Under the pieces are notes generated by a model. That model did not search any database. It was given only the letters and a program-made list of their open reading frames with translations, and was not told where the DNA came from. DNA of 60,000 bases from Botryllus schlosseri (lineage: Eukaryota): assembly GCA_051294905.1 (NCBI GenBank), contig CM119371.1:15316001-15376000 (forward strand), written 5' to 3'. The first letter of the stretch is position 1; each line of letters starts with the position of its first letter. The translations under genes were made by a program, and so were the position numbers. Shown here one piece after another: positions 2,612 through 54,918 of this stretch.

Positions 2612-5600
2612 GTGTACATTAATATAGGCTATCATTTCATTGAAGGATAGGTTGGAATTAGCAATATGACGTCCCGTGACGTCATGAGGTTCACGTTCGT
2701 GTTCACACAGAACCTTCCAAAAAGGTTCGCGTTCACACGAACCAGAACCTTTTAGAGGTTCACACCATCCCTACTCGACACCATATCTCAAAGCTCAAAA
2801 CTCATTAAAGTCTTATTTACGTTCTACCATGAATCGGCTATCAGCTCTATCCTTTCTGTCTATTGAAAGAAACTACGTTCAAAAACTTGAATTTGAGGAT
2901 ATTATCGCTGATTTTGCTTCTGCGAAAGCCCGAAAAGTTAAGTCTTGAGGCGGCGATTGCGATTTTCTATTTGCACAATACATTCGTTCGCTATATTTCT
3001 TGTCTTTATTATTTCTGGCCTTATTAAAGTCGAGACGGTGAGGCTGAGACGTGGCATATTATTTTTAATTCTTTTTATTGACAAGACTGCTTGAACATCG
3101 ATATATGTCAAAATTTGCTGCGGTCTACTTAGAGGGGGGGGGGGGGGGGCGGCATTTCGAGCGAGAGCCAGGGGCGGCAGCACACGCTGCTACGCCAGTG
3201 GATGGAGGAGGTGTTTTCGAAAATGTAGGGCAAGTTATAAATGATGATGCATCTTCGGGTGGGCCAATGGTTATTTAACTTTGTTGCATGCTGTTATTTT
3301 TGACCTCCCATCAGGATTATCGGTATAGTGAGGTGTACACGATTCCGACGAGTTGATATTTCTATATGGGGCGCATCATATTCCTCTGCAGTTCGAATCT
3401 GTAAAGTGAGGCTCTAATTGCAAAGGGCCCTACTACAATAAAATCGGAAAATGAAGTCACCTATTGAAATCTATCAAGAAATCGGGAGTCAATTCGTAAA
3501 TTCAAATTGCATATCGACGGCTGCAATGCCAACACATACTAATTGAATTACGTGTCAACGGCTGCACAAATTTCCTTCGGCTGCAGGTTGGCCACTCTTG
3601 ACTTATATGGTCTACGGCCGCATTCCAGGACATAGTCGCAATGAACTAACTGGACACCAAATACCCGTGTTAAACTGTCCATTTCTGGTGAAGCCCGGAC
3701 TAATCTACCTTTTCATATCGTCTTTACTACACGTATCGAAATCGCTACATATAGTGGTCATGTTATGAATAATGACTGGGACCGTTTATGGTCGCGCAAA
3801 TCGCGAAAAAAATTTAAATTCAGGAATCAATTTCGTCAATAATACTCTTAATTTTACATATTACTACCAAATATTTATTCTTTATCAGCCAAAGTGGCCA
3901 CGAAGACTGTGGATAAACCGACCGCGCAAACTGGAATAATATTCATCTATTTGACAATATCAGGCATGTTTAGAACTAGATAGATATCTTTGGACAATAT
4001 CCAGAGATGAAGCGTTTTGAAGTAGGACCAAGCACCTTGTCGAGCTATCTCGCTCATTTCCCACTACTACAAGGCGTAGCCTACGAGTACAACGCTCCGC
4101 ACGAAAAACCTGGCAAGAACGATACCTGGCCATCCACAAAGTTAATGAATCGAGAACGAATGATCGTGCGAATTGCGCGGTTTAGCGAGTCAGCTCGTAT
4201 ACTTACCGAGTCGCTCGCATGTCGTCACCAGAAACAACTTGAACTTTCAGTGACAGTGACAGGAACATTCGGTGTCAGTCATTTGGGCGCCCATGGAAAA
4301 TTAAACCTAAATGTATTTTGAAGGCTATATGTAACGAAGTTTTCGGTGTTAATTTGCTCTGAATACTCATTAAGGATATGTCCTATCACCACATCATCTA
4401 CTGCAGCGCCATTTTTCTCCAGCGCCCCCCATACCGCCCCCCTGAGCCCAGCGCCCCCCATATCTCCCCCTGAGCGTTTCCGCCCCCTTCAAAATCGCCA
4501 GCGCCCCCTGGGGGGCGCTGGGGGCAAGGTTAAGAACCACTGGTGTACATTAATATAGGCTATCATTTCATTGAAGGATAGGTTGGAATTAGCAATATGA
4601 CGTCCCGTGACGTCATGAGGTTCACGTTCGTGTTCACACAGAACCTTCCAAAAAGGTTCGCGTTCACACGAACCAGAACCTTTTAGAGGTTCACACCATC
4701 CCTACTCGACACCATATCTCAAAGCTCAAAACTCATTAAAGTCTTATTTACGTTCTACCATGAATCGGCTATCAGCTCTATCCTTTCTGTCTATTGAAAG
4801 AGACTACGTTCAAAAACTTGAATTTGAGGATATTATCGCTGATTTTGCTTCTGCGAAAGCCCGAAAAGTTAAGTCTTGAGGCGGCGATTGCGATTTTCTA
4901 TTTGCACAATACATTCGTTCGCTATATTTCTTGTCTTTATTATTTCTGGCCTTATTAAAGTCGAGACGGTGAGGCTGAGACGTAGCATATTATTTTTAAT
5001 TCTTTTTATTGACAAGACTGCTTGAACATCGATATATGTCAAAATTTGCTGCGGTCTACTTAGAGGGGGGGGGGGGCGGCATTTCGAGCGAGAGCCAGGG
5101 GCGGCAGCACACGCTGCTACGCCAGTGGATGGAGGAGGTGTTTTCGAAAATTTAGGGCAAGTTATAAATGATGATGCATCTTCGGGTGGGCCAATGGTTA
5201 TTTAACTTTGTTGCATGCTGTTATTTTTGACCTCCCATCAGGATTATCGGTATAGTGAGGTGTACACGATTCCGACGAGTTGATATTTCTATATGGGGCG
5301 CATCATATTCCTCTGCAGTTCGAATCTGTAAAGTGAGGCTCTAATTGCAAAGGGCCCTACTACAATAAAATCGGAAAATGAAGTCACCTATTGAAATCTA
5401 TCAAGAAATCGGGAGTCAATTCGTAAATTCAAATTGCATATCGACGGCTGCAATGCTAACACATACTAATTGAATTACGTGTCAACGGCTGCACAAATTT
5501 CCTTCGGCTGCAGGTTGGCCACTCTTGACTTATATGGTCTACGGCCGCATTCCAGGACATAGTCGCAATGAACTAACTGGACACCAAATACCCGTGTTAA

Positions 5601-6179
5601 ACTGTCCATTTCTGGTGAAGCCCGGACTAATCTACCTTTTCATATCGTCTTACTACACGTATCGAAATCGCTACATATAGTGGTCATGTTATGAATAATG
5701 ACTGGGACCGTTTATGGTCGCGCAAATCGCGAAAAAAATTTAAATTCAGGAATCAATTTCGTCAATAATACTCTTAATTTTACATATTACTACCAAATAT
5801 TTATTCTTTATCAGCCAAAGTGGCCACGAAGACTGTGGATAAACCGACCGCGCAAACTGGAATAATATTCATCTATTTGACAATATCAGGCATGTTTAGA
5901 ACTAGATAGATATCTTTGGACAATATCCAGAGACGAAGCGTTTTGAAGTAGGACCAAGCACCTTGTCGAGCTATCTCGCTCATTTCCCACTACTACAAGG
6001 CGTAGCCTACGAGTACAACGCTCCGCACGAAAAACCTGGCAAGAACGATGCCTGGCCATCCACAAAGTTAATGAATCGAGAACGAATGATCGTGCGAATT
6101 GCGCGGTTTAGCGAGTCAGCTCGTATACTTACCGAGTCGCTCGCATGTCGTCACCAGAAACAACTTGAACTTTCAGTGA
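2337..6179 (+). repeat. Near-identical ~1.92-kb tandem duplication (2337-4253 and 4258-6179)
   Basis: The copies differ only by a handful of SNPs, poly-G length and one ~10-nt indel; duplicated ORFs appear in the track; junction reads tttcagtgacagtgacaggaac. Confidence 0.95.
2785..3200 (+). mobile_element. hAT transposase C-terminal relic (Tip100/ZMYM1-like dimerisation domain) plus right end; duplicated at ~4716-5126
   Basis: Translates as KLIKSYLRSTMNRLSALSFLSIERNYVQKLEFEDIIADFASAKARKVKS*; ends in gctacgccagtg, a Tip100-type terminus. Confidence 0.75.
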
Positions 6180-6645: not shown

Positions 6646-8307
6646 TCACAGGGTTTTTAGCGCACATTGTGACATCTCATGTCCTCTATCATCCATTTCC
6701 TTCACCATTACAGATCCAAAAACTCCGAGAAATTTATATGTTACCTTCGTCTTGCACCATTTTTTGTTCAAGTGATCGTACTTCTCAATGGCATCAGTGT
6801 CGCCAAACTCATTCACTACAAAAATCCAACTGCCGATGCAATAAGCAGCATTGTCACCACGACAGGAATTCATAGATGGCGATGAAGTCCATTGAGCTGA
6901 AGTAACATTGTAACATTCTACGTTATCGATGTCATCTTCTCCACTCCACCCACCGATCACAAATATCCTCTGATAAACTGCAACAGCTCCACTACCAGAC
7001 ACAGGATATCGCACTGGATCGAGGTCAACCCACTCTGATGAGGATGGAGAGAATCTGCAGAACGAAGAAACAACGACACCATCTCGCAAGCCCCCGATAC
7101 AATAAATAGAACCATCCAATGATACAAGACTTGCATGCGCAATTGCTGATGGTTTGCTTTCCAGCTGAAACCATCTATTTTCAGACGAGTCAAATTTTTC
7201 CACATCAGCTGTTGCTGTGAATGGGCTTCCTCCAATAACGAATATTGATCCAGTTGAACAAACTGTGCGCGGATACCAACCATGGTCACAAATCATATCG
7301 TCCATATTTTCCCATCTTGAATTTTTGTCAACAAAATTGAGCCGATGAACTGATTTAGCTTCACAAAGTACATATATATATGAGTCATGGAGAATCGCTG
7401 TGAAAGATTCATCGAAATCACACTTCGCATTATGAAATTTTTTCATTTCCTGTGTTCTCGTATTAAAGGATCGGAGGCAATGAGCACGATAGTCGAAAAG
7501 AATTAACAAGTTATCAGCGTCATTACCCTCTTTGACATTGACTGAAGCTTTCAGAATATGTCCAGTGAATAACTTGTACAACTCCAAGTCGTTGCTTATA
7601 CGGGGATGAGTTTCTAAAATATGTTGCAAATACACCGAGGAGATTTGATGAATCTTGATTACTTCAAGAAATTCGTGCAAATATTCGCTTTTACTTTGAA
7701 ATTTGTCGATCCACTTGAGCGATACCGCAAGTTTTTCTTCTTCGCATAATTTGGATTCTCTCAATTTCAAAAGAGTGAGAAGATCATCTTTTTCAATGCT
7801 TTCAAACCCAGGTTGGTTTGAGATTTCCAAGATATTTTCCAGTAAAAATATTCTACATCTCGAAGAAACATCAACCAGTCCATAAATATCACCCACATTT
7901 CTGGTAGAAAAATAATTTTCAATAGTAAGTGAATCTGCCAAAATATTGGACACAGCTTGCTTTACATCTTCCAACTGCATCATAATTGCGACGTGAAGAA
8001 GATCAACGATACTTCCATCAGGAATCTCAAATTCACCAGAATATATGAAGTCGATGCAATTTTTTACGCACTCTGAATCAACGTCTTTGAAAACAACCCT
8101 TCCTTCACGACTCTCTTTTGTGTCATGCCTCAGCATAGCTCTAAAATAAGCGGAGCCAGCCGACAATACATTTTTGTGTGTACAATAGACATCATCTCCA
8201 GCTTGAATTATGAAATCACAATGGTCGCTATCTTGCTTCATTCGGTGCAATTCAGCCATCATACAAACTGCGTGCTTTTCCACATCAGGACGTACAACTC
8301 GCACCAT
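6646..8307 (-). CDS. Intronless BTB-BACK-Kelch (KLHL-like) protein, 553 aa, intact
   Basis: BTB (CDFIIQAG...HKNVLSAGSAYFRAML...CIDFIYSG), BACK region, kelch blades with hydrophobic-GG motifs (IFVIGG, IYCIGG, IFVIGG) and conserved Y/W; uninterrupted ORF. Confidence 0.93.
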   Translation of the reverse strand: MVRVVRPDVEKHAVCMMAELHRMKQDSDHCDFIIQAGDDVYCTHKNVLSAGSAYFRAMLRHDTKESREGRVVFKDVDSECVKNCIDFIYSGEFEIPDGSIVDLLHVAIMMQLEDVKQAVSNILADSLTIENYFSTRNVGDIYGLVDVSSRCRIFLLENILEISNQPGFESIEKDDLLTLLKLRESKLCEEEKLAVSLKWIDKFQSKSEYLHEFLEVIKIHQISSVYLQHILETHPRISNDLELYKLFTGHILKASVNVKEGNDADNLLILFDYRAHCLRSFNTRTQEMKKFHNAKCDFDESFTAILHDSYIYVLCEAKSVHRLNFVDKNSRWENMDDMICDHGWYPRTVCSTGSIFVIGGSPFTATADVEKFDSSENRWFQLESKPSAIAHASLVSLDGSIYCIGGLRDGVVVSSFCRFSPSSSEWVDLDPVRYPVSGSGAVAVYQRIFVIGGWSGEDDIDNVECYNVTSAQWTSSPSMNSCRGDNAAYCIGSWIFVVNEFGDTDAIEKYDHLNKKWCKTKVTYKFLGVFGSVMVKEMDDRGHEMSQCALKTL

Positions 8308-8499
8308 GATAACTAATCACCCGTCAAGGATACAATAATAGAGACTAGTCCTGTTTTGAAAGTATAGGCCACATGATTATATATAAACAGGTATAGAATT
8401 AGGGAGTGTTGATTGTCAAAATGAATAACATTGATAGATTAACCTGCATTGGAAAACTGCAGGGGGTGCTCATCAACGATGGTATTACTATATTAATGG

Positions 8500-12691: not shown

Positions 12692-14346
12692 TTAAACAAA
12701 GTGGGACAATCGACTAACTCCGGGATGGCCAAGTTGAGCATGGATTTCATTTAAATTTTGATCTGAACCGGTTACGGAGCAAATACGAGACAAGGTGTCT
12801 GCAGCGACGTTTTCGATTCCCCGCGCGATGTGAGATGTCATAGTTGAAAGAGCTGAGTTCAAGACGCCATAGGATAGCGCAAGTTTTGTATCCTTGATTT
12901 TGCTGTGATGCTTCTTCTGAAATATGTACGATAAAGCTCTTTGATCTGTAACAAGAAGGAATTTCTGATTGACAAGCAGGTAATTCCACTTCCGAACCGA
13001 TTCAATGATTGCGAGAGCTTCTTTCTCAATAGCGGGGTAGTTCGATTCTGTCTTTGTAAGTGTGCGAGAGAAGAAGGCTACAGGCCGATCACACTGGTTC
13101 AAAACTGCTGCAATGGCGCAGTTTGACGCGTCACACTCAACTGTAAATGGTTGGTCTTCGTAAATGCATCCTAGACAAGAGTCCACTATCTCTTTCTTTA
13201 ATTGACGAAAAGCAGCAATAGCATCAGCTCCCAAAGGAAAATTGGATGAACGAATAAGAGGCCCAATCTTAGCCGAGAAATTGTGAATCCATTTGGAATA
13301 ATATGAAAACATACCGCATATACGTTTCAAACCTTTAGAGTCCGTTGGCGCGGCCATATCCAGGAACGGCTTCATGTGGTCAGGGTCCGGACTTATGTTA
13401 CCATGAGATATTTTGTGCCCAAGCAACTGTATTTCTTCGATTCCAAAACTTGATTTCTCCGTATTGATGGTGAGGTGACAAGCTGTTGCGGAATCTAGAA
13501 ATGCTTTCAAGCGGATATCATGCTCTTCCTTGGTAGCGCCATATATTGTAATATCATCCAAATACGCTACGACACCCTGTAATTGATGCTTTGAAATAAA
13601 CGAATCGATATAACGTTGATAAGCCGCTACTCCATTCGTGACGCCGAACGGTAATCTGCAAAATTGGTAAAGTGAACCGCAAGCGGCGAACGCCGTGAAA
13701 GGTCTGTCCTCAGGGTGTAAGGGGACTTGATGGTAAGCCGATTTCAAATCAACGGCTGAATAGTACTTGCCTTCAGAGACTTCATCGATGACATCTTCTA
13801 TACGTGGCAGTGGATAAACATCCAAATTGGTGTACTTGTTGATGGATACCGAATAGTCAATGACAAGTCTTCGTTTATGCCGCACGTCCCTGGTTACTAG
13901 TGGCTGAGCACGCCAAGGTGAATGACTCGGTTCTATGATACCGTCACTGAGAAGCTTCTGTACTTCGCCTTTAATAAATTCGTTATCTTCTTTGCTATAC
14001 CTTCGAGAAGGAGCGGCAATGGGTTTGTAATCTGGAGTCAAGAATTGGAATATACGAAGCGGTTCATCGACTTCGGAAGTAACAAGTGCCAAGTGAGAGT
14101 TTACGCCTACTGTAAATGGCTCGTTCTTGCCATCTTTGAATTCGAAAATAACCTTCTTGTGCATTCTTATGAAATCTAGTCCGAGGACAAAGTCTGCGCA
14201 TAAATCATCGATTATGCCAAATTGATGAGTGTACTCACGTGACGCCACTATGAATACGACGGTAACGTGTCCTAGCACATCGGTGGCGCATTTGTTGAAG
14301 CCAATATGATATTGTAAGTTGGTCCCCGTGGAAACAAACCTAGTTA
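12692..14346 (-). mobile_element. Ty3/Gypsy LTR retrotransposon pol fragment (protease end, RT, RNase H, start of integrase)
   Basis: RT motifs DLKSAYHQV, RLPFGVTNG, YLDDI; RNase H ECDASN...EKEALAI...VTDQRAL; integrase H-x4-H start (HAQLGHPG); compensating frameshifts near 12820-12890 (WRLELSSFNYDISHRAG in another frame); truncated, and 5' part runs into the gap. Confidence 0.92.
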
Positions 14347-14446
14347 NNNNNNNNNNNNNNNNNNNNNNNNNNNNNNNNNNNNNNNNNNNNNNNNNNNNNN
14401 NNNNNNNNNNNNNNNNNNNNNNNNNNNNNNNNNNNNNNNNNNNNNN
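14347..14446. other. Assembly gap (100 N)
   Basis: Run of N seen directly. Confidence 1.
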
Positions 14447-14654: not shown

Positions 14655-17086
14655 ATGTTCATGGTCGAAAATGTATGTAGACATGAAGAGAGCAAGTAGT
14701 GTCGTGATCATTTTTCTCGGGTTGGCGAATTTGATTCATTCTGTGGCAATAAATTTTGTCAATACTTTCGTATTAGCATTTTACTTTCAGGGCCGCTCAA
14801 AATCCCTGCGCGGGCCGGATCTGGCTCGTGGGCCGTCCCTGCCCTACGGTATTTGGTCGATCGCTATGTTATTGCATGAAAATATACTGTACCGTCCTAG
14901 ATCGATGGAATATATCCGTTTATTCTGCAAATATTTAGTGCATTCGTTTTTTCAAATAGTAGTTTAAATCGAATTGAACTTCTCCGCCATGACTGTTAGC
15001 AAACCCGATTTCAAAGCATTAACGGACTTCTTAGCTTCTGATATCACATGATATTGGATATATTCATTGTGGTATCGTCATGGCCTATAAATACCCGTAT
15101 TCCTCCCATTTCTCATGACAATTTTCGTATTCTCTAGTACGCCAATCGTCTTGCCAGCGCCGCGCTACCAAAGCAGGTTATTATTTGTAGCCCAGCATCC
15201 AAATGGTCTTCAGGACACATGGAGACAATTCGAGGCACTTCTCCCGATACGCGTGAATGCACGACCAACGGTGGCCATATCAAACTGATATCCAACGCAG
15301 CGCATACAAAATAGTAACAGCATAAATTTTTAATTTGACACGTGTTTTCGTACAAGTACGTACTTAGACTCGACCTCTCGTAACGTGGGCTCGCACTTGC
15401 GAACGACTCGGTGGATAAGTGAAATTGATACGAGTCGAAAATTAAGATCAGAGAATAACTTAAAACCTCATGGCTTGGTTACCAACATCCCTGCAACATA
15501 GTCAAATATCAAATTCGTTCAACTAGACACCAACCTAAACTTAGTAACAAGCACAATATTATATTGTAATAATTTGCAGACCTATTTGTGGCTACTATGC
15601 AAATCGAATTCCAGGAAAGGCAGTATAGTTAACTTGTGTGGAAATAACTGTTCTCGAAACAGTCTCTAATTTTATTCAATGACTGTATGGTCAGAGTGGA
15701 TGATTGATGGAATTGGAGCAAATTATATTTAAAGTAGTCAGCGCGAAGTATTCATGCATAACTATAGAAGTTGGGCGGAAAATTTCTACTCAATTACAGG
15801 TAGAAGTATAGTAATCTCGAAGACATTTTCGAGACCACTAATTTTTAATGGGAGTAGAACACGAAGATCTGAAAAGGACTCGATTAAGTCGCATTTCAAA
15901 AAGCAAATGTCGTCGATGTGTCGCTTCAATCGGAGGCGGTCACTATCAAAATTGCGGGATGCAATGACCAACGACACTACAAACGGATGTAATTTTCGAC
16001 AATATATTCAGTTATTCTGGCACATGGGTTACTTTCGATCAGTTTCCAAGATAACTCCAATCATAAGAGTGACGCAAGCATATCTCAAAACTACTTTCTA
16101 TTTTTCGCAATCCCAAGTGTAAAAGTAGTTTTGCCCAGAAAGCAAAGTTAATAAGCATAGAAGTACGATGTGTCCAAAGCCATGACCAATTGAGTAAGTA
16201 GATCAAGTGTGCAAAAGCTACTTGAGTATACTCGGAAAAGTAGAAGCACATAGTTAGTTAGTCACTGACAACCTCTGTGTAAATATGGGAATTGAAATAC
16301 AGTTTGAGACGAATAGAACTGTAGAAGCCGGGTATAGCGCATAGCACACGCTATCTCAAGTCGTATATACAAAAACATAGGCCCGGGAAAATTGGTAGGT
16401 CCACATATTCTGCGAATCTTAGCAGCAATAATTGCATAAATGTAGCAACACAACACGTGAGTTGTTTCCAGCGACGAAATCAATCGATGACCACGTTGTC
16501 GTAAGATTCTCTCGATACAGTTGAAATATTCTGTCCTCTTTCGCGTCGAGATTGTAGGATCTGATATTGAAGGGAAATCGTTACAGCAACCATGCACTTA
16601 CAATTCAGTATACGCGGCCCTATCAAATAGTAAAATAGTCAGTTAGCGGTCAAAGTTTTCAGCGTTACTACTCAAATATAAATAGAAGTAGCAATGGTTT
16701 TTATTGGTCCTCGGCTACTGTGGCCTTGTGCAACAGGTCGAAAGTTTGATTGGAGTACAAGACTTTTCTAAATTATTCGATTCGACAGGAGTGCGAATAC
16801 TATAATAGGCGTTGCAGCAAAAGGGCTGGTAAGAATTTCCGATAATACAATGTTATTAACACCATGGTTTCATACACCTTCGATGATATATTGTTTACTA
16901 GTTTTAGCAGTAAATGTCCCATTGATTCAGGCTGTGCGCACAGGTCACATAATTCATTGTCATGGCATTTAATCCTGTGTAAAATTTTCGTTCAGTCCGC
17001 AATGACCAGTTTGGAGACGGAAGTAGGAATTCTGGAGGCGACCTCGGTCGGACTCGAACACGCAACCAATAAGTTTCGCTGTAGAA

Positions 17087-18152
17087 CAGAGGTCTCAAAC
17101 ACGCGGCCCGCGTCGTCATTTTGGATTCTGAATTATTCGACAATATTTAACTGCCACATATATATTTTCGTAGCTTTGAGAATTGAAAATTCGATTTAAA
17201 ACTTCTCCAAAACCCTCAAATTACTCATCAAATTTCACTATCACATCACTTTCTAAGGTTACTATGAGGGGCAAGATCAGCTTACACGTAATATTACCTG
17301 TTTATGATGGTAAAAAATGACCCGCTGATGATTCGTGAATGAAAATTGTGATTTTCACTAAGGGCGCGACCTTTTGAATAATTACTCGAACTCGGAGTGA
17401 ATGGGTGATAAAATGAAAATGACTCGACTTTAGTCGGGTCGAACTTTACAATCAGAGTATGACTTACGACTCGGAACGCTGTGACTTGGTACGACCACGA
17501 ACGCAACAAACTATCAGACTATGGGAAATAATATTATATCAAAAGGTCGTAGCTTGCGTTGCGTAGCGCATATAGCTATCTAAGCAGGTCAAAATGACAA
17601 TGGCAATCGTTAGCATTCTATTGCCCCCTTGGTGTATAGGTATGGTTACATCCTGTGCCATCTTGGGTCTGTTTATCCATGTTTTTATCGCCAATTAAAG
17701 GTGGCGAGTGAGGTAGTGGTATGCTTCATCGTTGAAACAGTAATGGGTTGCTCGACAATTGGACGGTTTTACAACTATGGGACATTATTCATTATATGCA
17801 CGTTGTTATTTATCAGTTCCGATATTGGAAGGGAAATCTAACTTCGATGCATGCACGTTATGATGCATTGTACACTAGCAAGGTGTCTGTAACTAATTAT
17901 TTTGATAAACTGTGCTAAGTGCAACAGGAAATTTATTCAAATATTTAGAAATGTGATATTTTTCTTGCCTGTCGTGAATTCACAATAGTAAATCACATTC
18001 CCACGATGTTTGTGGAATGCCAATCTACAAGGTCACGTCCAATATGCTTTCATGAAAATACATTAAATACCCCTGTTATTGGTGCTGCGGACTGCGAAGC
18101 TATGAAAAACTAGGAAATTGGCCCGCGAGCATATTTGAGTTCGAGACCTCTG
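17087..18152. mobile_element. hAT (Buster-type) non-autonomous element inserted in a minus-strand SINE head
   Basis: TIRs CAGAGGTCTCAAAC / GTTCGAGACCTCTG; perfect TSD ctgtagaa; rejoined flanks give a tRNA-like head (gtagcggtatacg...gttcgagtcc) homologous to 57320-57400. Confidence 0.88.
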
Positions 18153-18192: not shown

Positions 18193-18398
18193 CTATGGAC
18201 AGGACATGGACATACTAACATCGTTACTTACCCCGTAAACGTCATACGACCCTTTCTGTCTCTCTTGTTGTCTTTTCCGGCAACAGCATACGATAATGAC
18301 GACGATAATAATAACCAGAAATAGGACAACAAGCACAATCAACGCAATCACCCATGCGCTGAGAGACTGTGCCTGAGCGATCGCCGGCGCAGCAGGAT
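18193..18398 (-). CDS. Terminal exon of a type-I membrane protein: TM helix and short cytoplasmic tail
   Basis: Acceptor tttcattgcag, phase 1; PAAPAIAQAQSLSAWVIALIVLVVLFLVIIIVVIIVCCCRKRQQERQKGSYDVYG...*. Confidence 0.8.
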
Positions 18399-19001
18399 CT
18401 GCAATGAAACAATGAAGTTTGACATCATGTGGCCAATAGGACGGAACGCGTATAGTTTTACGCAGTTTGGATGAAATCCTGTTCGATAAAATGAAGACCT
18501 GATCCAATTCGGATACTGTCTCCGTCTCTAAAGTGACGACATGGATCCGAAAATATCATGAAGCGGTTGAGTAGGCTATCTATCGCCCTGTCGTCGATAA
18601 AATTTATTTAATTTGTGACACCCTGGTAATTGATTGGTAACCGTCCGGCACATAACGACGTCCTTGTATTAAGTAGTTCACGCCGAATCGGTGGTGTTAC
18701 AAATATAATAGTACATTCATAGTGAAATATAACCGAATATTTTCGGATGAAACTCGTCACAGAATTAAATATCAACAGTCGCATCACCAATTCATTTAAC
18801 GAAGACAATGACTGAAGTTTGTCATTAAGAATGAAACGTGTTTCTGTATAATTTACAAATGTCCCATTAGTATTATTTGTTTTGTATATGCCGTTGTCGT
18901 TTTATCAATTTTTGTTGGTACTATTGCACGGTATACTTCAAATTCTGTCGTTGCCATATTTACAATGCGAATTTTGTGTTTTGTAGGTTTATCGGTTACG
19001 T

Positions 19002-19578
19002 CGGAGGTCTCAAACTCAAATGTGCTCGCGGGCCAATTTCCTACTTTTTGACGGCACCGCGGGACGCAGCACCAATAATAGGGGAGTTCAACGACCTTTT
19101 GATATTTTGCTATTTTCAATACCAGTTTGATAGTTTGTTTCTTCGTGGTTGTACCAAGCCACGGCGTTTCACGTCACAGAAGTCGATCTCTGATTGTATC
19201 CTTTGACGCGACTCATCAGCCCGAGTCATTTTTAATTTATCACCGATTGAGTTCGAGTAATTTTACAAAAGGTTATGCTCAAGTCCAAATCACAAATTTC
19301 AGTACGAATAAGGAACGGGCCATGCAACTCATGTTTAACCATCATAAACAAGTAATGTCACGTAATAGATAATCTTCCGCTGCGTCGTAACTTTACAGGT
19401 GATGTAATAGTGAAGTTTGATGAGTAAAGTTGCTGGCTTCTGGAGTAGTTTTAGAGCGAATTTTAGGTTCTCAAATTAAAACAAATTGTTAGTTAAATAT
19501 TGTCGGATACTTCGAAATCCAAAATGCAGTCGCGGGCCGTACAAAATGGTCTCGCGGGTCGCGTGTTTGAGACCTCTG
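19002..19578. mobile_element. hAT MITE, same family as 17087-18152 in opposite orientation; intronic
   Basis: TIRs CGGAGGTCTCAAAC / GTTTGAGACCTCTG; TSD ggttacgt / ggttactt. Confidence 0.82.
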
Positions 19579-19944
19579 GGTTACTTCATACTGTACCGTA
19601 TTGGTTTTACTTTTGAATCCGTTTGAATCCCTTTACTGTGGCGATAACTCTGGAACAGATCCACCCGGAAATTCTTCAAGTGATACTTAATGTAGGCCTA
19701 CTATTACCATGGCTATTCTGATGAAAGCAATCTTCAGTTTTGTACCACGAAGCAGTTATTCAAGCATTAAGCATCAGATGTAGTATAGGCTAAATCTACT
19801 TCAGTGCCCCCCAAGGCGTACTTTGTTACTGATCACCTCTGATTGCGTTCCTATTCAAATCGGCTGTGATTCAATGTCGCCCGTACATAGGCCTACTTTG
19901 GCAACCTACTTGGCTACAACGAAGTACATGTGACGATATCTTAC

Positions 19945-20075
19945 ATTTTCCGTGATGACACCACGCCGTTGTATCATTGGACGGCACGTAGCAACACCCA
20001 CGTTGCAGACAAGCCGCTATTGGCATAGCGCTCCATCCGCATTGTATGCGTATATTGTAGGTAGACGCATATTAG
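19945..20075 (-). CDS. Trefoil (P-type) domain exon, apparently 1 nt short (frameshift)
   Basis: RIQCGWSAMPIAACLQRGCCYVPSNDTTAWCHHGK matches the trefoil pattern R-x2-CG-x7-C-x3-CC-x8-WC; acceptor ccacag, donor T|gtaaga; 131 nt between two phase-1 junctions. Confidence 0.75.
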
Positions 20076-20128
20076 CTGTGGCAACTGATACTTTTCATGT
20101 TATCAATGGACAGAAAGAGTGTAGTTAC

Positions 20129-20277
20129 CAGAGTAGGTCCACTCGAATGTGTTACAGTATTGCCCTTTACAGCAAAAGTGGCACACCGCCCCGATCTCTC
20201 CAGGCTTGCAAGCCTTATCATTGGATGCCACGTATTTCTCACAATCAGATTCGCTCATGCAACCTCTCGAATGAAGC
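20129..20277 (-). CDS. Ly6/uPAR (three-finger) domain, second exon
   Basis: LHSRGCMSESDCEKYVASNDKACKPGEIGAVCHFCCKGQYCNTF with the CC-x4-CN hallmark; acceptor attcag (phase 2), donor G|gtaact (phase 1). Confidence 0.8.
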
Positions 20278-21214
20278 CTGAATATGTCGAACAAATTACG
20301 AAATAGTTTACCATTCGGTTTTGCTGATAGCTAGAAGAGTTACTCTCGTGATCAATGTATTGACGTTTTAACTAGTAGGTCTTTAGTGTTTCGTGTTTTA
20401 ATTTCATGGCTGATGAGAATTGTTAACCCACTTAAAGGTGACCAGTGACCAGTAACGAAGTACTTCTAATTTATTCGATACTCGAGTGGTTATGCTTTGA
20501 GACTACTAACACCTCTATTCGAAGAGTTTTTCTTTTGGCAAAACTACTTACTATCGACACTTTAGATTTTATAAAGTAGAAATTAGTTTTGGAATAAGCT
20601 TGCAACACTTTTACGAACGGAATTTTCATGACAACTCGGCGTCATCCCTACCGTGCCAAGGTAACATTATGTAATATCGTAGCGTGTCTGATCATCCTGA
20701 TTCCTTTCATGTTATCCATTCTCAAACACAGTGTGCATGCCTCTTATTTATACACGGTGTAGACCACGAGGTGTCTGAATAAAAGACTGCTCCAAGTCGT
20801 TATAGCACCACTTCTTTATCTTCTCCTTATATTACGATATTATGGTGTATTGATTTGATATAAAAAGTTATTGAAATGGCGGTAGAGGGAAAGATAGGCT
20901 ACATCTTGCAATTCCGATTAACTGTTAAAAGTATGCAACCAACTACCAAATCTACTTTTAAGATATAGACGTGCTCGAGAACATTTCAGATCACCATTTT
21001 CTACTACATGAAGTATAGTTGGGCGTGGCTTCGATATTGCTAATTTTATCGAAGCATATACTTGTCGTAGAGTAGAAATTTGTCGCGTGACTTCTACTTC
21101 GACTTGAGCAACATTTCGCACTTCGTCATGAAAAAACAACACGGGTGAATAACTTTACTCTTCAAAATATTTGCGCCAATCGCGTACTGACACGACGAAC
21201 CATATGTATAATAC

Positions 21215-21332
21215 CGTTCCGAAGTGTTCGCGAAGTATTCAGCTTGCGTGAAGCACCAGTCACCGGAATTAGGACATGTCTTCAAGTAATTTTCAGCTTC
21301 GAAATACCTGTCGGTCTTCCAGCACTTTGCCC
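21215..21332 (-). CDS. Ly6/uPAR domain, first exon
   Basis: AKCWKTDRYFEAENYLKTCPNSGDWCFTQAEYFANTSER; acceptor cattccag (phase 1), donor CG|gtatta (phase 2), in frame with the next exon. Confidence 0.72.
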
Positions 21333-21367
21333 CTGGAATGGAATTGCAGGAATTACTTACTTATCCC

Positions 21368-21537
21368 TATCAGAATTCCTACCTAAGTGCTGGAGGTTTA
21401 TCTGGGTCCCTCCTTGCCACCTCATCCGTTTAAGCGGTGTCTTATAACTGCCCAAAAGTGGGCAGTGCCACATGTCGGCCTGGTGTAAATGACCAAATGA
21501 CCATATTAGTCGACAAACCATGAATTACCACAAATAA
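21368..21537 (+). mobile_element. 5'-truncated SINE (family A) with TSD
   Basis: Core ggaggtttatctggg...aagcggtgtcttata and tail gtaaatgacc...gtcgacaaaccatga; flanked by direct repeat acttacttatcc. Confidence 0.75.
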
Positions 21538-22731
21538 ACTTACTTATCCGCATGCAGGTTGTCAGATCGATATCCTCCATACACGATGTGCCTCACAATT
21601 ATATTTCAGCGGAATGCCACTTTTATTGAACATTGCTTAAGAAAAATGACTTAATTATTGCTATTAGGATTTGGAAAGTAGAAGGTATACCTTTGGATAG
21701 GTTTGAATCTCTCTCAAAAGTGACATTACCACAAGAATGTCATGAAATAGCCGATATATCACGGCATCAGAATATACTTGGAAGATTCAATCTATATTTG
21801 TACTGCCACTAATGATTTTACGTTATCCGTGCAGATGCAACCTGTAATTCCGAAAGTACCCATCTCCGATTAACAGCTAAATGTAGTATTTTACATATTA
21901 TAAATTATTATATATGCAAATCCTGGTGATTTTCAGGCCAATCATTTTTTACTCCCACTCGAAGTAATGTTGACACGTCTTGGAAATAGCTACTTTTAAC
22001 GGAGTTAACATTTTCTATTTGATTAGCATCGCTGACCATTTTAACTATATCTCTGTATAAAGATCAGTTGTTCTTGAGCGTTAGTAACCAGCAGAACACT
22101 TACGTTAATCTACAAGCCTTCGCGGAACCCCACATTTCCATGAATACAAGAACCACCACCATACACGTCTTACTAGACATCTAATACATTACCCTAGATA
22201 ACTGGTGTACAAAATGAACTGTGCAACAACAGACTCTGTTTAAAGAACGAGACCATTAAAATATAAAACATTATAATGAATATCAATGTGACTTCTGCTG
22301 TCCCCATTCAGAAAGCAGTTCACAAATGCGAGATTTCACTTGGAAAGTATCATTGTATTGGTCGACCGAAACGTAACAGCGTAATGCCAGTTGCTTAATT
22401 GGATTGCTTGTAAATATTGGGGATAGAATTGGCATTTCAGAAGGTCGTTTCGGTTTCGAACCCTAACCTCCCGCGTATACCACTTCCACTACATACGACG
22501 TATACCACAACAGTCAATATTATATAACTGATCGTGCCTAATTGCCTGCAACTAACGATGGCCAAGACTGTCGTGTCATATATGCATCATACAAATCATG
22601 TCTATGAGTTGAGTGTGTGACTTGACCTTCACGGAACACCAGGGATAAGAAGCATCGATAGTTGAATGCTTCCAAAACATCGGCACGATAACTTCACGTG
22701 GGATGTCTTCACCCAATCTTATTTCACAGAC

Positions 22732-22879
22732 CTGTTGTTGATGGTGTCGCAAGTGTTGAGGCCTCGACAGCCTGCGCCTCACTGAAAACTCCGCCGTGAT
22801 ATGATCTCACCCGGAAAAGGTACGAAGTTCCAGATTCCAGCGAACCAACCTCGATCTGGTAATTAGATGTGATGTATCG
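22732..22879 (-). CDS. Fibronectin type III domain, second exon
   Basis: RYITSNYQIEVGSLESGTSYLFRVRSYHGGVFSEAQAVEASTLATPSTT (L-x2-G-x2-Y-x-F-x-V); acceptor gctttag (phase 0), donor G|gtctgt (phase 1). Confidence 0.78.
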
Positions 22880-23307
22880 CTAAAGCATCGTTTCTGTCCG
22901 CTACGAATATGTGGCTTCACTGGATTGGAACTAGGACTAACAGTCAGGGGTGGCCAGTATCGAAGTAGCCTAAATCCTATTTGCGATGTAGGCCTACTCA
23001 AGTATGTTATGTACAATTTCGCTACTTAGCCTACTGAAGCAGTTTCGTGTTGATTATACTGCCACTTCTAATTCAACAACAGTTTTCGCAGCAAATTTAA
23101 TTACTTTTTACATTTTATGCATCATGAAATTGTCACGACATCTGGGCGATGCAGAAGGTGAATGATCGTAGCAAATATATTTTGAAATGTCCCCCTACTT
23201 GTTGAGTCCAGTCCTAGTATCGAGTTGAACAGTCGAATACAAGTAGGTCACACGCAGTAAAAGAGGACCGGAAGAATTGTATGTAAGTAGGCCTACACTC
23301 TTTATGT

Positions 23308-23612
23308 CAGTGGTTCTCAATCTTTTTTAGACACGCCCCCCTTTATGATAGTGAAAAATTTCGCGCCCCCCTTATCGTCATATCACAAAATCTAACCGGG
23401 ATGGTAGCAACCCCAACAGATTGTTTGATGGCCCGGAGGGTTATGATGTTGATGAGAGAATTAAAAACTATGAAATTAGGTCTATATATAGAAAAACAGC
23501 GCGAATTGGAGGTAAATCGCGCAGAACATTTTTTCAGTTGACCGCTTCTTCGCGCCCACTTCAGATGCTTTCACGCGTCCTAAGGGGGCGCCCCCCAGGT
23601 TGAGAACCACTG
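23308..23612. mobile_element. hAT (Buster-type) MITE
   Basis: TIRs CAGTGGTTCTCAA / TTGAGAACCACTG; perfect TSD ctttatgt. Confidence 0.9.
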
Positions 23613-23689
23613 CTTTATGTGATTACAACAGAAAGACGCTGTTACAGCCATTCGTAAACAATTTAATTAAAATGGCTCAGGTATAGTCT

Positions 23690-24218
23690 TAGGGCTGGGC
23701 AAAATCGAGTACCTGAGTGATTCGATTCTGAATCACGTAAAATGCTTCGAGTCGAGTCGAGTAATCGAGTATCACTCATTATGACGTCATAGCAGAATAA
23801 TATTTGTCAGAGTTCAAATATGTACCTTATAAGCGACCGCAAAGAATAGAATGCCTGTTATCCATCATATTAAGGATATTTTTTCGACCATACCGATTTC
23901 ATTGCACTTGGTGACATATTGTGGGATGATCATGACTTCGGAAATGTGCTATTTCCAGTAACGTTCGTAGCTTTATACTTCATGTTTAGTATGCTACGAT
24001 ACGCCGGGATACGGCCAATCAAAGTTTCAAAGTTTCAACAGTGAAATTAGCATAAACTCGTTAATCGTTGATAAACTCCTCGTTGATAAATAAACTTTCA
24101 GTGGTGAGGAGCGCATATTTTCAGTACTCGAAAAAATCGTCTTTTACCACTCGACTCGAATCATTATAATTAATACTCGATTCAGATTCGAGTACTCGAA
24201 TCATTGTGCCCAGCCCTA
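23690..24218. mobile_element. TIR MITE (TAGGGCTGGGCA family) with short TSD
   Basis: TIRs TAGGGCTGGGCA / TGCCCAGCCCTA; ACTCGA repeats; 4-5 bp flanking duplication (a)gtct; inverted relative at 53091-53734. Confidence 0.85.
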
Positions 24219-24404
24219 GTCTCAAGGTGGGATATAAGCGTCTGTACGGCAAAAAATCCTAGGCGGAAGGGTCATAACTTCGGCATTGGAAAATACCCAC
24301 TCCAGCTACTCGATTATAATCGTTGCGGTCAATACTCCATTCTTGAAACCGTTACGAAGTTCCATCAAATCTTTAGTGATTGGCTTTCTCGCAACTGTGT
24401 AGTA

Positions 24405-25990
24405 CAAGGGTCGGCAACCTACGGCCCGCGGGCCGGATCCGGCCCGCCAAGGGAAATCGTCAGGCCCGCGGCATAATAATTAGTTATCACAAGAATACGG
24501 CCCGCCGTTTCATAATGAATTTCAATCTGCAGTGCAGCGCTGCATGACAAAGTGCGGCATTGCTACGATATAATAGTAGCCTACATCGTATTAGTCTATT
24601 GTTACGCCATAAAACGAAGGTGGTTGAAGTAGGAGATGGAGATAGACTAGACTGGATCGGTGCTTATCAATCGGGTGTATCTCGCAACCGAAGGTGTTCC
24701 ATACTTTTTTTAAAGGGTTTACCATTCTAACGGGGTGTAACAATAAAGGTGTTCTTCCTTTGCTTCAAAAACGCTTGGAACATCTCAGACGCAATGACGG
24801 AATCTCAAACTGTTCAATTATAGATAACTAGCCTCCGTGTGTTAGTTAGCCTGTCTATGGTTTAATTTTCCAGAAGGCATTGTGTGCCAAGACAAAAAAC
24901 CTGAATAGTGTTTTGGCCACAATGGCGAAAACTGTTCATATGATATTAGTCTCATTGACTGAATCATTTACGCCAGATATTACTAGAAGCAGAGAATCAA
25001 TATGGCGATGTCATGTAGGCCTATATCTGTCATGTTCGCTCATTAAGTCGAGCAGCTATGCTTGCACGAGTGAATGAACTGAGAAATGGAATAACAACTT
25101 TCCTCGAAAACACAAATATCGCCGACTCATAATCTTGTAATCGAAAATGGGTATCTCATCTTGCTATCCTGGTACATTTAACGTCACATCTGAACAAATT
25201 GAATTTGCAACTTCAGACGGGAAAACAACTAAATACATGAGATGTTGAGGCGCATTCAAAACAAATCTGTGACTCTGGAAATGTCAACAGTACAAAGAAA
25301 ATTATGCTCACTTTCCTATACTGGAGGAGAGAAAACCTAGTACCAACACCACATTTGTAACTGTGATACGAAATTTAACTACTGAATATTCACCCGCTTT
25401 TCCGACATTCCTTCTCTACAAAATGAATTCTGACTGTTCAGTACTCTGTTTAATGTGGACGCCAATACCATTGCCTGAAAATTTCAAATGGGCCTTTCTG
25501 AAATGCGATGCAGTTGAATTGAATGACAAATTTCATACAAGGAGCATATAGCTGCATGACTTTGACAAAGAGTACGTTCTTGAAATTGGTCTTTATCCCA
25601 GCTTGACCAGCAATGCAAAAGAAATTGCATCGATTTTTTGAAGCACGTACGCATGTGAACAATAGTTTTGAACAATGAAATTCACGAAGAGCAAGCTAAA
25701 ATCACGTATTTCAGACGTCCATTTTGAATAGGGTCTGATTCTTGTTTCATCTGACTTGTTACCAGAAGTTGAAAACCTTTCACAAAACAAGCTGCGTCAA
25801 TTGTCACAATTATTCTGTGTTGTTGAAGTCTAAATACATGTGTCTCCTGATTGGTATGATTGAGATTGCAGCAATGTAGGATATTATACCTAAGTGAGCG
25901 TAAAATATAGTACTAGGAAAAATTCCGGCCCGCCAAAAAGTTGTTCACCTGAAATTTGGCCCGCGACTAGCAAAAGGTTGCCGACCCCTG
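24405..25990 (+). mobile_element. hAT Buster/SPIN-like element with degenerate transposase (GTF2IRD2-like)
   Basis: TIRs CAAGGGTCGGCAACCT / AGGTTGCCGACCCCTG; perfect TSD gtgtagta; relics ALCAK..., SHLNKLNLQLQ, STYACEQ.F.TMKFTKSKLKSRISDVHF. Confidence 0.9.
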
Positions 25991-26030
25991 GTGTAGTAGC
26001 AAATCCACATTATAGGCTATGCCTACTCAC

Positions 26031-26200
26031 CGCGTTCGTGAATACTGCAACTGTTGTATGGCCTTGACCTGCAGTTGTTCCGCCAAGCAATTTTGCATAT
26101 TCAACGTCATAACGATAATCTCCAATGCAGTCGGGATCCCACGACAGTTCAACCGACGAATCAGTCACGTAACTCTCCAAGTTTGTTGGTATCTTCGGTA
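26031..26200 (-). CDS. Fibronectin type III domain, first exon
   Basis: PKIPTNLESYVTDSSVELSWDPDCIGDYRYDVEY... (P-x-NL...LSW...Y); acceptor ttttcaaag (phase 1), donor GCG|gtgagt (phase 0), matching the 22879 exon. Confidence 0.82.
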
Positions 26201-27019
26201 CTTTGAAAACGATGAGTACAAAATGGTGATGTTTCACTTCAGCACAGGAATTGAGATTTCATTAGTGAGTGATCATTAAGAAGTGTTTGTTGGCTATATC
26301 CGGTGTACGTACAATATAGTCGGTGTACTGACTTAAAGTTTGTATTAAGCATATCCTCACTCAGTGTTACGTGGTCTTCGATTTTCTGAGACCCATCGTA
26401 AATGTTGTAATTGCAGCGGCGGATAGATGTAGGGGACTATTGGCGGTTGGGGCATAAAATATTTGTTATCAAAGCCATGTTGAATTTCACCAAAGAAAAA
26501 CTTTCTTCCACGTTGAAAAAAACTGTCATGGCGTCATAAATAATATGTATTTAAATATAGGTGATACTGAACAACAGTTTTGTATATTACATCACAATAT
26601 ATCGATCAAAGTCATGCTGCAGTGCGAGTGAATCCATACCTGCTTCAGTTTTAGATACTTTCAACTTAACATATCCTCATCGGCCGGGATCTGGGTCTAT
26701 TCCCTTTATCACAATATATAGGCAAGAGATGTACGCATCAGGATAGCTCCGCACCAAATGCTTCCATATATAACAGTAATATTCGCGCCGATAGTGCGAT
26801 AACAAAATCTTATATACTCACATACGTTTCCGAGCGTCATTTTTACATTGCAATGCATTTAGCAAGAGTATCGTCCTATTAACTAGTGTGTTCATATTGA
26901 AATGAATCCGAATATTTTCGGCTGACACTCGTCAGGGTAATCGTCAGCAATTAGTAGAGAATGGAAAGGAACATTGTGGTATGTCAACAATCGTATCACA
27001 AAGTATTGCGTCACCGGCA

Positions 27020-27703: not shown

Positions 27704-27744
27704 ATATCTTACCCCAGTTCAACAGCGGGTCTTCGCTATTGCAA

Positions 27745-29052
27745 TTATTCCCAGAATTGCTTTCGTCTGCATCAGTGTATCCTTCCCGTCCGCCCAACAC
27801 ATAAACCGACTTTTTATCGCTCGCAACAAAAAATCCATCTGAATGTCGCATATCCTCGTAATCCACCCTGTGCCTCTCAACAGAGGCTATATCAAACATC
27901 ATAGTTGACCGAATGGAGACCATTATCACCCATTTTCCTGTGCAAATAATCTGATTATACTGTGACTTATCGCGGCCACCGTATTCGTCGTCGCTTTCGT
28001 CTTCGTCATCGCTACCGTCGTCGTCGCTACCGTCGTCTTCCCCCATTGTCATTACACATCTCCATTCGGTCCCGTTGAAGGCGTGCAAAGAAACACTGTC
28101 GCCAACGTAAAGTATCCCCTGATATTCCACAGCCTGACAATGCCGGCCAACAGCTGATGGCAGTTCACCGGCTTTTTCCCACGTCTCATTGCACAAATCG
28201 TATTGGTAAACCACTTTCGTAGCTTTATTAATCGACGTGTTGTGGCTCATCGGCGGGATCCTGTTCTCAGCGGGGAAGCTTGCCTGCGAAGAAATTTCGG
28301 ACATGTTGCAGGCATTTCAGCGAGCCATCAATCAGATTCACTGTACAAATTCGCTTTTTCACGATTTCTCGCGGAATGCGCTGTAAATCGATCTTTAGAA
28401 ATAGATCGTGAAATTGTGTTTTTCTTTCTTCGACATTCGCGTTCGTCCACACCACCAGCCCGGCCCATTTTATGAGCTCGGACGATCGAAACGAACCCCT
28501 CATCAAATCGAAACAATAATCCATCATTTCGTAATCCAGCAAGTTGATACGGGTAGACTTTACGAGCGCATGTAGATTAGTATCAAGAAATGTCAATATC
28601 GGCCCATTTAAAGCATCCTTGTTATAGAGACGAGACAAGTTGATCACTTCCGCGAACGTTGTCAGATCAATGTTTTCGGCCAGGAATTCGACGCATAGTT
28701 CTGATAGTTTCGGCATCTGCAGCATTTCCGCTGCATCAAGCAGGCCTCTCGCTAATATCTTGGAGATCCCCACAGACCCCAAATAAATGAAGTCGACGCA
28801 TTGGCTCAAAACCTCGGGAGTCATTGCCGAAGAGAAGTCTATAATTCCGGTGTTGGCTTCGTACGTGTCATTGGAGAACATCCCCCTAAAATATTCCGTG
28901 GATGCGGCCAACACGCATTTATGCGCCATAACTTTGACGTATCCGCATGTAATGGTGACGTCGCAAAACTCCCTATTTGCTTTTAATTGCGACAACAGAT
29001 TACTCTGGTGTGGTTACGATTTTTTGTAAACGATCGTCATCTCAGAGTCCAT
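27745..29052 (-). pseudogene. Intronless BTB-BACK-Kelch pseudogene
   Basis: ATG at 29052 (MDSEMTIVYKKS*PHQSNLLSQLK) with in-frame TAA at 29014-29016; BTB FCDVTITCG...HKCVLAASTEYFRGMF; 1-nt frameshift near 28270; kelch part lost after YVLGGREGYTDADESNS, where the ORF runs into an antisense SINE tail. Confidence 0.88.
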
Positions 29053-44956: not shown

Positions 44957-45934
44957 ATTTCATAGGAGATCAGCTATAGACATATTATGCTGCAAAAACG
45001 TAACAGATATACAGTATTGCAATCAGTACAATTCCAAAGACGTTGCTAGTTTAAAAAAAAAAGAATGCACCGACAATAACATCAGCGTTTCCCTCCATTT
45101 ATGGGTGAGATTATCGATTCTACGAATTCAACTAAAGATTATAGCAATTATCAGATTGCTGTCAAACAAACGGTGGGAAATAATTTAAATTTATATCGGT
45201 TAAACATAGAATTGGTGCAATCTACAATGATTCTTCATTTTCCTGAATAGCCAAACGGTAAACCCAACATGCGAATTAGGCTACATTCTTATCAAATATG
45301 TTAATACAGTAACAACAGCAACAAACTTTTACCCCGCATAACATGAAACCATTTTCATCCATTCTAGCATGGCAGCATTTTAAATGTAGCAACACTGAAA
45401 ATTCTGATAGTTCAAGTTTAAACTGGAAACAGTGGTTGTTATCGGCAATAAGTTACGCGTGCCATAATGGCTTCGCGAACATAATAATTAATTATAGACA
45501 GAAAGTTTCCCATGACGTTGCAGCCAATTCCACCATGGATTCAAGTATCTCACGATAATAACGTGCTCTAAAAAAAGCAAAATCATTTTAATCTATTCAA
45601 CCGTTTACTGCGTAGCTGTAAATTGCTATGATTCAAGTTCCTCACTGCCATGACAAGCCCTGGCAAAAACAAATCATTTTCATCTATTCAAGCATAACAA
45701 CCGTTCACACAGCGTATAGTTACAATGTAAATTGTTATTAGTCAAGTATCCAGGCATCTCGGTCCCCAACTTTCCTCCGTGTAAATATAATTTATCCGCG
45801 ATATCAGCTTTGCATCCGTCAATGTATTTGATGGCGACACCCCGAATATATTGCCATTTCTTTGTGGCATCATTGTAGAATACTACATCTGAACCATGAC
45901 TGATGGCATACCGAGTCTCATTGAAACCAAATAC

Positions 45935-47190: not shown

Positions 47191-47365
47191 CCAAATACAC
47201 ACTCTTGACTTTGACCAACACATATTGGTAAGTTTAAAATCCGGAAACACTGCATGATTCTCAAGCTTATCTCAAAAGCGATTTTTCGTGAGAGTTGTGA
47301 GTACTCGCCACCAACGACATAGATACACTTCTGTTTACTCGCAACAGAAAAGTCATACCAATAAG

Positions 47366-54770: not shown

Positions 54771-54918
54771 AGTTGTATATTTTTTGTGGCGTGTTGGGCA
54801 CTGTCGTTAAAACTTGATCTACTTGAGCTGGAATTCCCAGTGGAAGAGCTACAACCGTCAAAGCGCAGTGCTGGCGATATGGAGGCGTGCTGCACGTCGT
54901 CCATCCAAGTAGCCTATA

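Follow-up and report, generated by a model that had tools for sequence, protein, structure and literature searches.

Exon Structure of the Locus

The window analyzed in this study, a stretch of 60,000 nucleotides of Botryllus schlosseri DNA, contains a series of minus-strand exons resembling those of a cell-surface receptor, joined at its 5' end to a broken copy of a BTB-BACK-kelch gene (Table 1). The original prediction listed six minus-strand segments as a receptor gene. All six were present, and the first five were flanked by AG before and GT after the exon. The predicted end of exon 6 at 18193 had to be moved, because a consensus GT donor, the highest-scoring one for this exon end, follows 18232, and a further tail exon (E7) was found when the tail of a Styela clava protein was used as tblastn query (E 3e-4). 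The predicted TM helix in exon 6 was supported by TM-type Pfam matches and by a hydropathy of 4.05 over 19 residues. Poly(A)-type hexamers were found at 15849, 15676, and 15334.

Table 1. Features of the locus, in the direction of the minus strand
Feature	Position	Strand	Description
Broken BTB-BACK-kelch gene copy	27752..29052	-	3' end cut off and joined to the receptor remnant; Pfam BTB 82.9 bits, BACK, weak kelch
E0 remnant	27713..27751	-	First LU domain, final 13 codons only; phase-1 GT donor kept, acceptor and 5' part missing; absent from the original prediction
E1	26031..26200	-	First half of FN3; fn3 E 0.012; 25/54 identical to Styela
E2	22732..22879	-	Second half of FN3 and Ser/Thr/Pro linker; fn3 E 0.035; 19/45 identical to Styela
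E3	21215..21332	-	First half of the second LU (three-finger) domain; 18/38 identical to Styela
E4	20129..20277	-	Latter half of the second LU domain, ending CC-x4-CN; 28/49 identical to Styela
E5	19945..20075	-	Trefoil exon, frameshifted in first ~25 nt; 24/35 identical to Styela past the break
E6	18232..18398	-	Stalk, TM helix, Cys cluster, basic stretch, KGSYDVY; phase-0 donor; 26/53 identical to Styela
E7	16480..16560	-	Last 26 tail residues, second conserved Tyr, then stop; 11/26 identical; absent from the original prediction
Probable 3' UTR	15671..16479	-	Inferred; up to AATAAA at 15676

Pfam was searched with single exons. The FN3 domain predicted to be split over exons 1 and 2 was detected in both, but below the cut-off, and both halves aligned to Styela. 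Exons 3 and 4 of the window had no Pfam match, yet the LU domain predicted to be split over them aligned to the second LU domain (LU2) of the Styela protein with equal cysteine spacing. The trefoil exon passed the Pfam cut-off (36.4 bits against 21; model positions 8-42 of 43). One N-glycosylation sequon in E3 was common to the Botryllus copy and Styela.

A Single Styela Protein Matches All Exons

All seven exons (the six noted and the one missed) were collinear with one Styela clava protein at 42-69% identity. The exon set is therefore not a product of chance. The protein, LOC120337675 (XP_039261472; 431/455 aa), is named "uncharacterized protein" in RefSeq and has the order signal peptide - LU - FN3 - LU - trefoil - TM - tail. 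The Botryllus locus shares this domain order, a gap-free LU2 with identical cysteine spacing, and the motif KGSYDVY, which was unchanged between the two species while its flanking sequence had diverged. Three features of the Styela protein, namely its signal peptide, complete first LU domain (LU1), and six-cysteine trefoil, are missing from the window copy. In both species, the cytoplasmic tail stops after 45 residues. A domain search of the Styela protein found no catalytic domain, and its full-length AlphaFold model was unusable (pLDDT 41.5).

Because the exons match one Styela protein in order, the architecture is real and already in RefSeq as a predicted protein. The proposal of a mosaic type-I membrane protein, restricted to one lineage and combining FN3, LU, and trefoil domains with a TM and a basic-GSY tail, thus holds for the intact Styela homologue. 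The single LU domain of the original prediction was replaced by two LU domains, and its tail by one of 45 residues encoded in two exons. The domain combination was said to be unfamiliar, and no description of an LU-FN3-LU-trefoil type-I protein was found in the literature searched; yet it was already annotated as a predicted protein.

Further database searches returned little. A HMMER search with E4 gave five matches; three were dropped as unrelated cysteine-rich proteins, and only one Styela locus was among the results. No candidate came from word-index protein searches with E4 and E5, which is weak evidence. A metagenome scan with the trefoil motif pattern gave 0 matches, and none of the 83 pattern matches in a scan with the Styela protein was confirmed.

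The Second LU Domain Resembles Three-Finger Proteins

In a fold search with the Styela LU2 model (pLDDT 63), the match to Lypd1 had a Z of 6.3 (rmsd 3.7, 78 aligned), and the first 32 of the best 50 rows were three-finger proteins by title. The weak PDB sequence matches of LU2 were also all three-finger proteins (8/8). Support for a three-finger fold of LU2 is moderate, since Z was below 8 and Foldseek with the same model returned nothing at E <= 0.001. Pfam cut-offs of the LU clan were not reached by LU2 (UPAR_LY6_2 16.2 vs 31.5, Activin_recp 16.6 vs 20.9) or by Styela LU1 (CD59 23.1 vs 33.9). Set against the consensus pattern of LU cysteine pairing, LU2 has ten cysteines with a CC-x4-CN end (spacing 15,6,18,5,10,8,2,0,4) and does not begin with CxxC.

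We also considered a BAMBI-like role for the family, in which it would serve TGF-beta/BMP ligands as decoy or co-receptor. LU1 matched the ACVR1 ectodomain (E 2e-4), LU2 matched Activin_recp (E 0.016) and had TbRII-ectodomain as its nearest named Atlas cluster (0.81), and a kinase is absent. However, all of these matches were below cut-offs (Atlas matches all < 0.9), and the fold search ranked Ly6-type proteins first (Z 5.6-6.3), with receptor ectodomains at 3.6-4.6. FN3, a second LU, and a trefoil are also not known from BAMBI. A BAMBI-like role is improbable.

The Trefoil Exon Is Frameshifted

The intron phases had been given as 0,1,2,1,1. Exons 1-4 chained as 0,1,2,1, but E5 is 131 nt long and is entered in phase 1, so that it exits in phase 0, not 1, and the last phase of the series was not confirmed. 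The six-exon splice reached a stop at codon 214. Each of the three AG acceptors that precede the trefoil core (20090, 20084, and 20075) gave the identical broken frame, and the sole other AG (20030) lies inside the trefoil domain. The trefoil predicted in exon 5 is thus present as a domain, but it is not included in frame. Instead of an in-frame six-cysteine trefoil, its reading frame has a stop codon at the start, Tyr at the possible Cys1 position, and five cysteines. E5 is preceded by a 53-nt intron and is about 7 nt shorter than the corresponding Styela stretch; a small deletion, separate from the event at the 5' end, may have broken the domain. Splicing of E4 to E6, with E5 skipped, stays in frame.

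The 5' End Is Joined to a Kelch Gene Copy

Of the signal peptide and first LU domain, 13 LU1 codons were left, and nothing else was found within the 60,000-nt window. This remnant, E0, has 9/13 residues in common with Styela 93-105. Its match score was 54, compared with 25 for the next best match in the window and 39 for the best of 200 shuffled peptides. Two other candidate LU1 pieces (53320-53270 and 52843-52790) were rejected because both scored ~22 bits, which is noise level, and the first lies inside an inverted-repeat element.

The kelch gene fused to the remnant is broken in three places; a stop interrupts it around codon 13, the frame shifts by 2 nt near 28290, and its likeness to a paralogue at 54079-54561 stops at 27752. 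Nearby, some kelch copies have stops and shifts and another is intact. A 690-nt contig from run X8 matched 27752-28067 with 5 differences in 316 and departed from the window exactly at 27752; a nearly identical kelch sequence without the fusion therefore exists. Runs X8 and X11 had been picked as possible RNA and behaved as DNA. Read joints between 21495 and 27660 reflect a short repeat common to both sites. Deletion or ectopic recombination may have joined the decaying BTB-kelch gene to the LU1 exon end and thereby removed the start. An in-frame kelch-receptor product would be without a signal peptide, judging from its N-terminal hydropathy of 0.08, compared with 2.93 in Styela.

A working derived form (SP-FN3-LU-TM-tail) could arise if a signal-peptide exon >32 kb upstream were spliced to E1 and E5 were skipped. 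In its favor, the E4-E6 junction preserves the frame, E1 has a phase-1 entry, and RNA covers the 3' end. However, no signal-peptide exon with a good donor was found in 26200-60000 (three weak candidates; best Styela match E 4.5), and the E0 donor and both E5 splice sites are kept, although selection for skipping would not need them. Such a form is very unlikely.

Transcription and Read Evidence

Read mapping to the window was dominated by repeats. RNA depth on exon and 3' UTR bins was 0.9-2.1 (about 4-9 reads each), with about 2 in bin 15828-16491 and 0.4 in the next bin, whereas exon-free low-repeat bins had a depth of 0 in 4/5 cases and 0.14 in the fifth. This low cover indicates that some copy or allele is transcribed. 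None of the listed joints (15 of 639), indels (12 of 208), or differences (40 of 1320) fell on a splice junction, E5, or 27752.

The gene might instead be intact in the animal, if the frameshift came from an error in the consensus and the kelch join from faulty assembly. The remaining exons are all clean, the trefoil past the break is the best-conserved part, and a 100-N scaffold gap lies 2-13 kb from the locus. RNA per exonic base was also 2.2 in the bin of E4 and E5 and 2.1 in the 3' UTR, as expected with E5 included; this figure rests on about 4 reads, possibly from another allele or copy. Against this, two separate errors would be required, DNA contigs agreed with the assembly with 0 differences at four stretches (16310-16493, 17693-17962, 21536-21915, and 26086-26499), and the damage among the neighboring kelch copies, one of them intact, is against assembly error. 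We consider an intact gene unlikely.

Since the front end is lost and the trefoil exon is broken, the window locus probably represents a null allele or a disabled copy of a gene for an ascidian type-I membrane protein. The two separate lesions lie in one copy, which as assembled cannot encode the intact protein. On the other side, the chain E0-E7 has no stop for 290 codons when E5 is left out, 10/10 LU2 cysteines and 7/7 GT-AG introns are retained, the exons have RNA cover, and the scaffold gap is near. As E0-E7 is clean beyond the two lesions, the decay must be recent unless the lesions come from assembly errors. The window copy is of value mainly because it leads to the family and illustrates how a gene can decay by fusing with a kelch pseudogene; for further study, the Styela gene is preferable.

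Proposed Function and Comparison with Known Systems

The intact form would consist of signal peptide - LU - FN3 - LU - trefoil - TM - 45-residue tail, and we somewhat favor a non-catalytic co-receptor in adhesion or recognition. Its pair of LU domains may bind a protein partner, with FN3 and the Ser/Thr linker as their spacers. The trefoil could bind a glycan different from the TFF ligand or dock a neighbor. Juxtamembrane cysteines may be palmitoylated, and the conserved tyrosines of KGSYDVY and the distal YD could serve as docking sites for FERM- or SH2-type adaptors.

It seems improbable that the family comprises polymorphic receptors for immunity or self-recognition that evolve by birth and death. 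One copy at the window locus is broken and the tail carries tyrosines, but canonical ITIM/ITAM motifs are absent from both tails, 42-69% identity to Styela with a gap-free LU2 does not suggest fast change, and the matches returned held one Styela locus only. LU and trefoil relatives in mucosal defense, mentioned in excerpts of PMC7221086, would fit such a receptor. A broader speculation is that this is an undescribed ascidian family in cell or self/non-self recognition that turns over by duplication and loss. Broken copies might then be null alleles still segregating, or recently duplicated copies, of a receptor with presence/absence polymorphism, and the strongly conserved trefoil, without the TFF Asp, might read a different ligand.

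Ly6/uPAR proteins (Lypd1/Lynx2, Prod1, PSCA, GPIHBP1, CD59) have the three-finger fold in common with LU2. Whereas classical members consist of LU only and are secreted or GPI-anchored, the receptor has a TM and tail and mixes LU with FN3 and trefoil; its LU2 lacks the CxxC pair at the N-terminus and carries one more pair ahead of CC. BAMBI has an LU-fold ectodomain, one TM, and no kinase, as in the receptor family. Compared with BAMBI and TGF-beta receptor ectodomains, the family has two LU domains, FN3, and trefoil, the sequence likeness is weak, and the cytoplasmic Ser/Thr kinase of TGF-beta receptors is absent.

The basic juxtamembrane stretch of the receptor, followed by G-S-Y, resembles the tails of GNP-motif proteins (glycophorin C, neurexin IV, Caspr, Necl) and syndecans, and the original prediction compared it to a band-4.1-binding motif; no consensus for such a motif was found in the literature searched. 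The receptor ends in Asp in both species, which we take not to be a typical PDZ ligand. A 23-residue tail peptide, too short for such searches, had 0 PDB and 0 Pfam matches. The GNP motif is named, with no sequence given, in the excerpted text of PMC3180372.

LU combined with other modules is a known invertebrate theme. A survey of 387 invertebrate genomes, none from a tunicate, reports LU with Kunitz, C1q, fibrinogen, Ig, MAM, thioredoxin, permease, and 7TM, and has 0 mentions of trefoil or fibronectin from abstract to conclusions (PMC13719153). TFF1-3 and other P-type domain proteins (sucrase-isomaltase, ZP1/4) share with the receptor a trefoil above the Pfam cut-off. The equivalent of TFF3 Trp47 is retained in both species, whereas the sugar-binding Asp of TFF is absent; TFF3 position 20, Asp/Asn in trefoil factor lectins, is Gln in the window copy and Leu in Styela. 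The family offers a testable chordate candidate: a surface co-receptor whose trefoil would have an altered specificity.

Results

Six minus-strand exons had been joined into one receptor gene. All six segments were present, with AG before each and GT after the first five. The proposed chain of intron phases held for exons 1-4 (0, 1, 2, 1) and failed at exon 5, whose 131 nt exit in phase 0. The six-exon splice reached a stop at codon 214. The trefoil of exon 5 lies in a different frame, opening on a stop codon, and the same broken frame was obtained from all three acceptors upstream of it. The join of exon 4 to exon 6 was in frame; a working form that skips the trefoil and has a distant first exon was given little chance. 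A 53-nt intron (20076-20128) separates the LU and trefoil exons, and the six other introns span 937-3151 nt. In Pfam scans of single exons, the proposed trefoil was recovered (exon 5, 36.4 bits, from model position 8), fn3 was weak (exons 1 and 2), and exons 3 and 4 gave no match.

A HMMER search of 1.84 billion proteins with exon 4 returned five matches, two of them real: the Styela clava protein LOC120337675 (P0009, 55%) and P0008 (54%), a fragment on a 1021-nt ENA contig whose DNA is probably of animal origin, from a third ascidian. P0009 has the order signal peptide, LU, FN3, LU, trefoil, TM and tail. Its Trefoil (41.1 bits) and fn3 (31.9 bits) scores exceeded the Pfam cut-off, and CD59 (23.1 bits) fell below it. 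All window exons aligned collinearly with P0009, and the ten cysteines of the second LU domain (LU2) were equally spaced in both, gap-free. These results establish that the exons form one gene and that the combination of FN3, LU, trefoil and TM is real, as the original prediction had proposed. The Styela homologue also revealed a tail exon (E7): exon 6 does not end at 18193, since a consensus donor follows 18232 and the tail resumes in E7. A 5' remnant (E0) matched Styela with a score of 54 (runner-up 25; maximum of 200 shuffled sequences 39).

Features of the window and exon identity to P0009
Feature	Position	Strand	Identical	Remark
E0	27751-27713	-		missed remnant; last 13 residues of first LU domain, phase-1 donor
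E1	26031-26200	-	25/54	FN3
E2	22732-22879	-	19/45	FN3
E3	21215-21332	-	18/38	LU2
E4	20129-20277	-	28/49	LU2
E5	19945-20075	-	24/35	trefoil
E6	18232-18398	-	26/53	stalk, TM, tail
E7	16560-16480	-	11/26	missed tail exon
BTB-kelch copy	6646-8316	-		intact (553 aa)
BTB-kelch copy	27752-29052	-		broken, fused to receptor
BTB-kelch copy	43373-44959	-		in-frame TGA at 44084
BTB-kelch copy	53983-54938	+		fragment without BTB
Reverse transcriptase/RNase H ORF	12692-14446			long, LTR-retrotransposon type; enters 100-N scaffold gap, 14347-14446
Tandem duplication	2292-5949			near-identical, period ~1.93 kb; possibly recent, possibly an artefact of assembly
Dispersed duplication	61-2400, 45933-48301			older, 83-92% alike, ~45.9 kb apart; pieces inverted near 50.8-51.2 kb
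MITE-like elements	23690-24217, 53092-53734, 24400-25981, 18997-19580			non-coding, inverted ends, in receptor introns; very high DNA read depth

BTB-kelch sequence adjoins E0 directly 5' without an acceptor, and its likeness to a paralogue located at 54 kb stops at 27752. In this kelch copy a stop comes early and the frame shifts by 2 nt. Its frame continues into E0 with no stop between, and a read-through product would lack a signal peptide; neither signal-peptide nor further first-LU sequence was found within the window. A contig from sequencing run X8 tracked 27752-28067 with 5 differences in 316 and left the window at 27752, which indicates that near-identical kelch sequence occurs un-fused. 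Among the rows listed from the repeat-dominated read mapping, none lay on a splice junction or either lesion (the trefoil frameshift and the kelch join). Assembly error as the source of both lesions was judged unlikely. Apart from them the exons were clean, with 290 open codons and GT-AG borders in 7/7 introns. With two separate lesions next to exons that are otherwise clean, the window copy was probably disabled not long ago or represents a null allele.

In RNA run X23 (6% read), depth was 2.1 over the bin of the 3' UTR and 0.9 over that of E4 and E5, or ~4-9 reads per bin at 90% likeness, not assignable to the window copy. Depth was zero in four of five exon-free low-repeat bins. This difference shows weak transcription of some copy or allele.

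The four intronless BTB-kelch copies differ in state and look like a birth-and-death cluster. One is intact (553 aa), with nearest named relatives in Styela clava and Phallusia (three named of seven matches), which suggests that the window comes from an ascidian.

Discussion

The receptor is a new arrangement of known modules, kept in at least two ascidian species and the P0008 fragment, and seen here probably in a disabled copy. The Styela protein is already in RefSeq, labelled uncharacterized. Literature searches by its identifiers found nothing, and those by domain words found no description of the receptor among the papers listed. A survey from 2026 that covered the LU architectures of 387 invertebrate genomes, no tunicate among them, mentions neither trefoil nor fibronectin in its accessible part (PMC13719153). 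An LU domain is defined by ten cysteines in the accessible part of another report (PMC6337849). All Pfam scores for LU2 were below cut-off, and Foldseek with the Styela LU2 model (pLDDT 63, moderate confidence) gave no significant E-value. In a structural comparison this model ranked with three-finger proteins, which filled the first 32 matches (Lypd1, Z 6.3, rmsd 3.7, 78 aligned).

The intact protein has no catalytic domain. Its tail retains clustered cysteines, a basic segment, the KGSYDVY motif and, further out, a YD; the proposed resemblance to a 4.1-binding motif was not confirmed. Our best guess, held slightly above even, is a non-catalytic adhesion or recognition co-receptor, which would be linked to adaptors of the FERM or SH2 type. 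A BAMBI-like decoy and a polymorphic immune receptor each appear improbable. Strong conservation of the trefoil suggests another binding role than that of trefoil factors (TFFs). According to the accessible part of one report, TFFs need Trp and Asp/Asn for GlcNAc-alpha-1,4-Gal (PMC7221086). Of these residues the trefoil of the receptor has retained Trp and lacks Asp/Asn, and a TFF-type lectin role is therefore unlikely.
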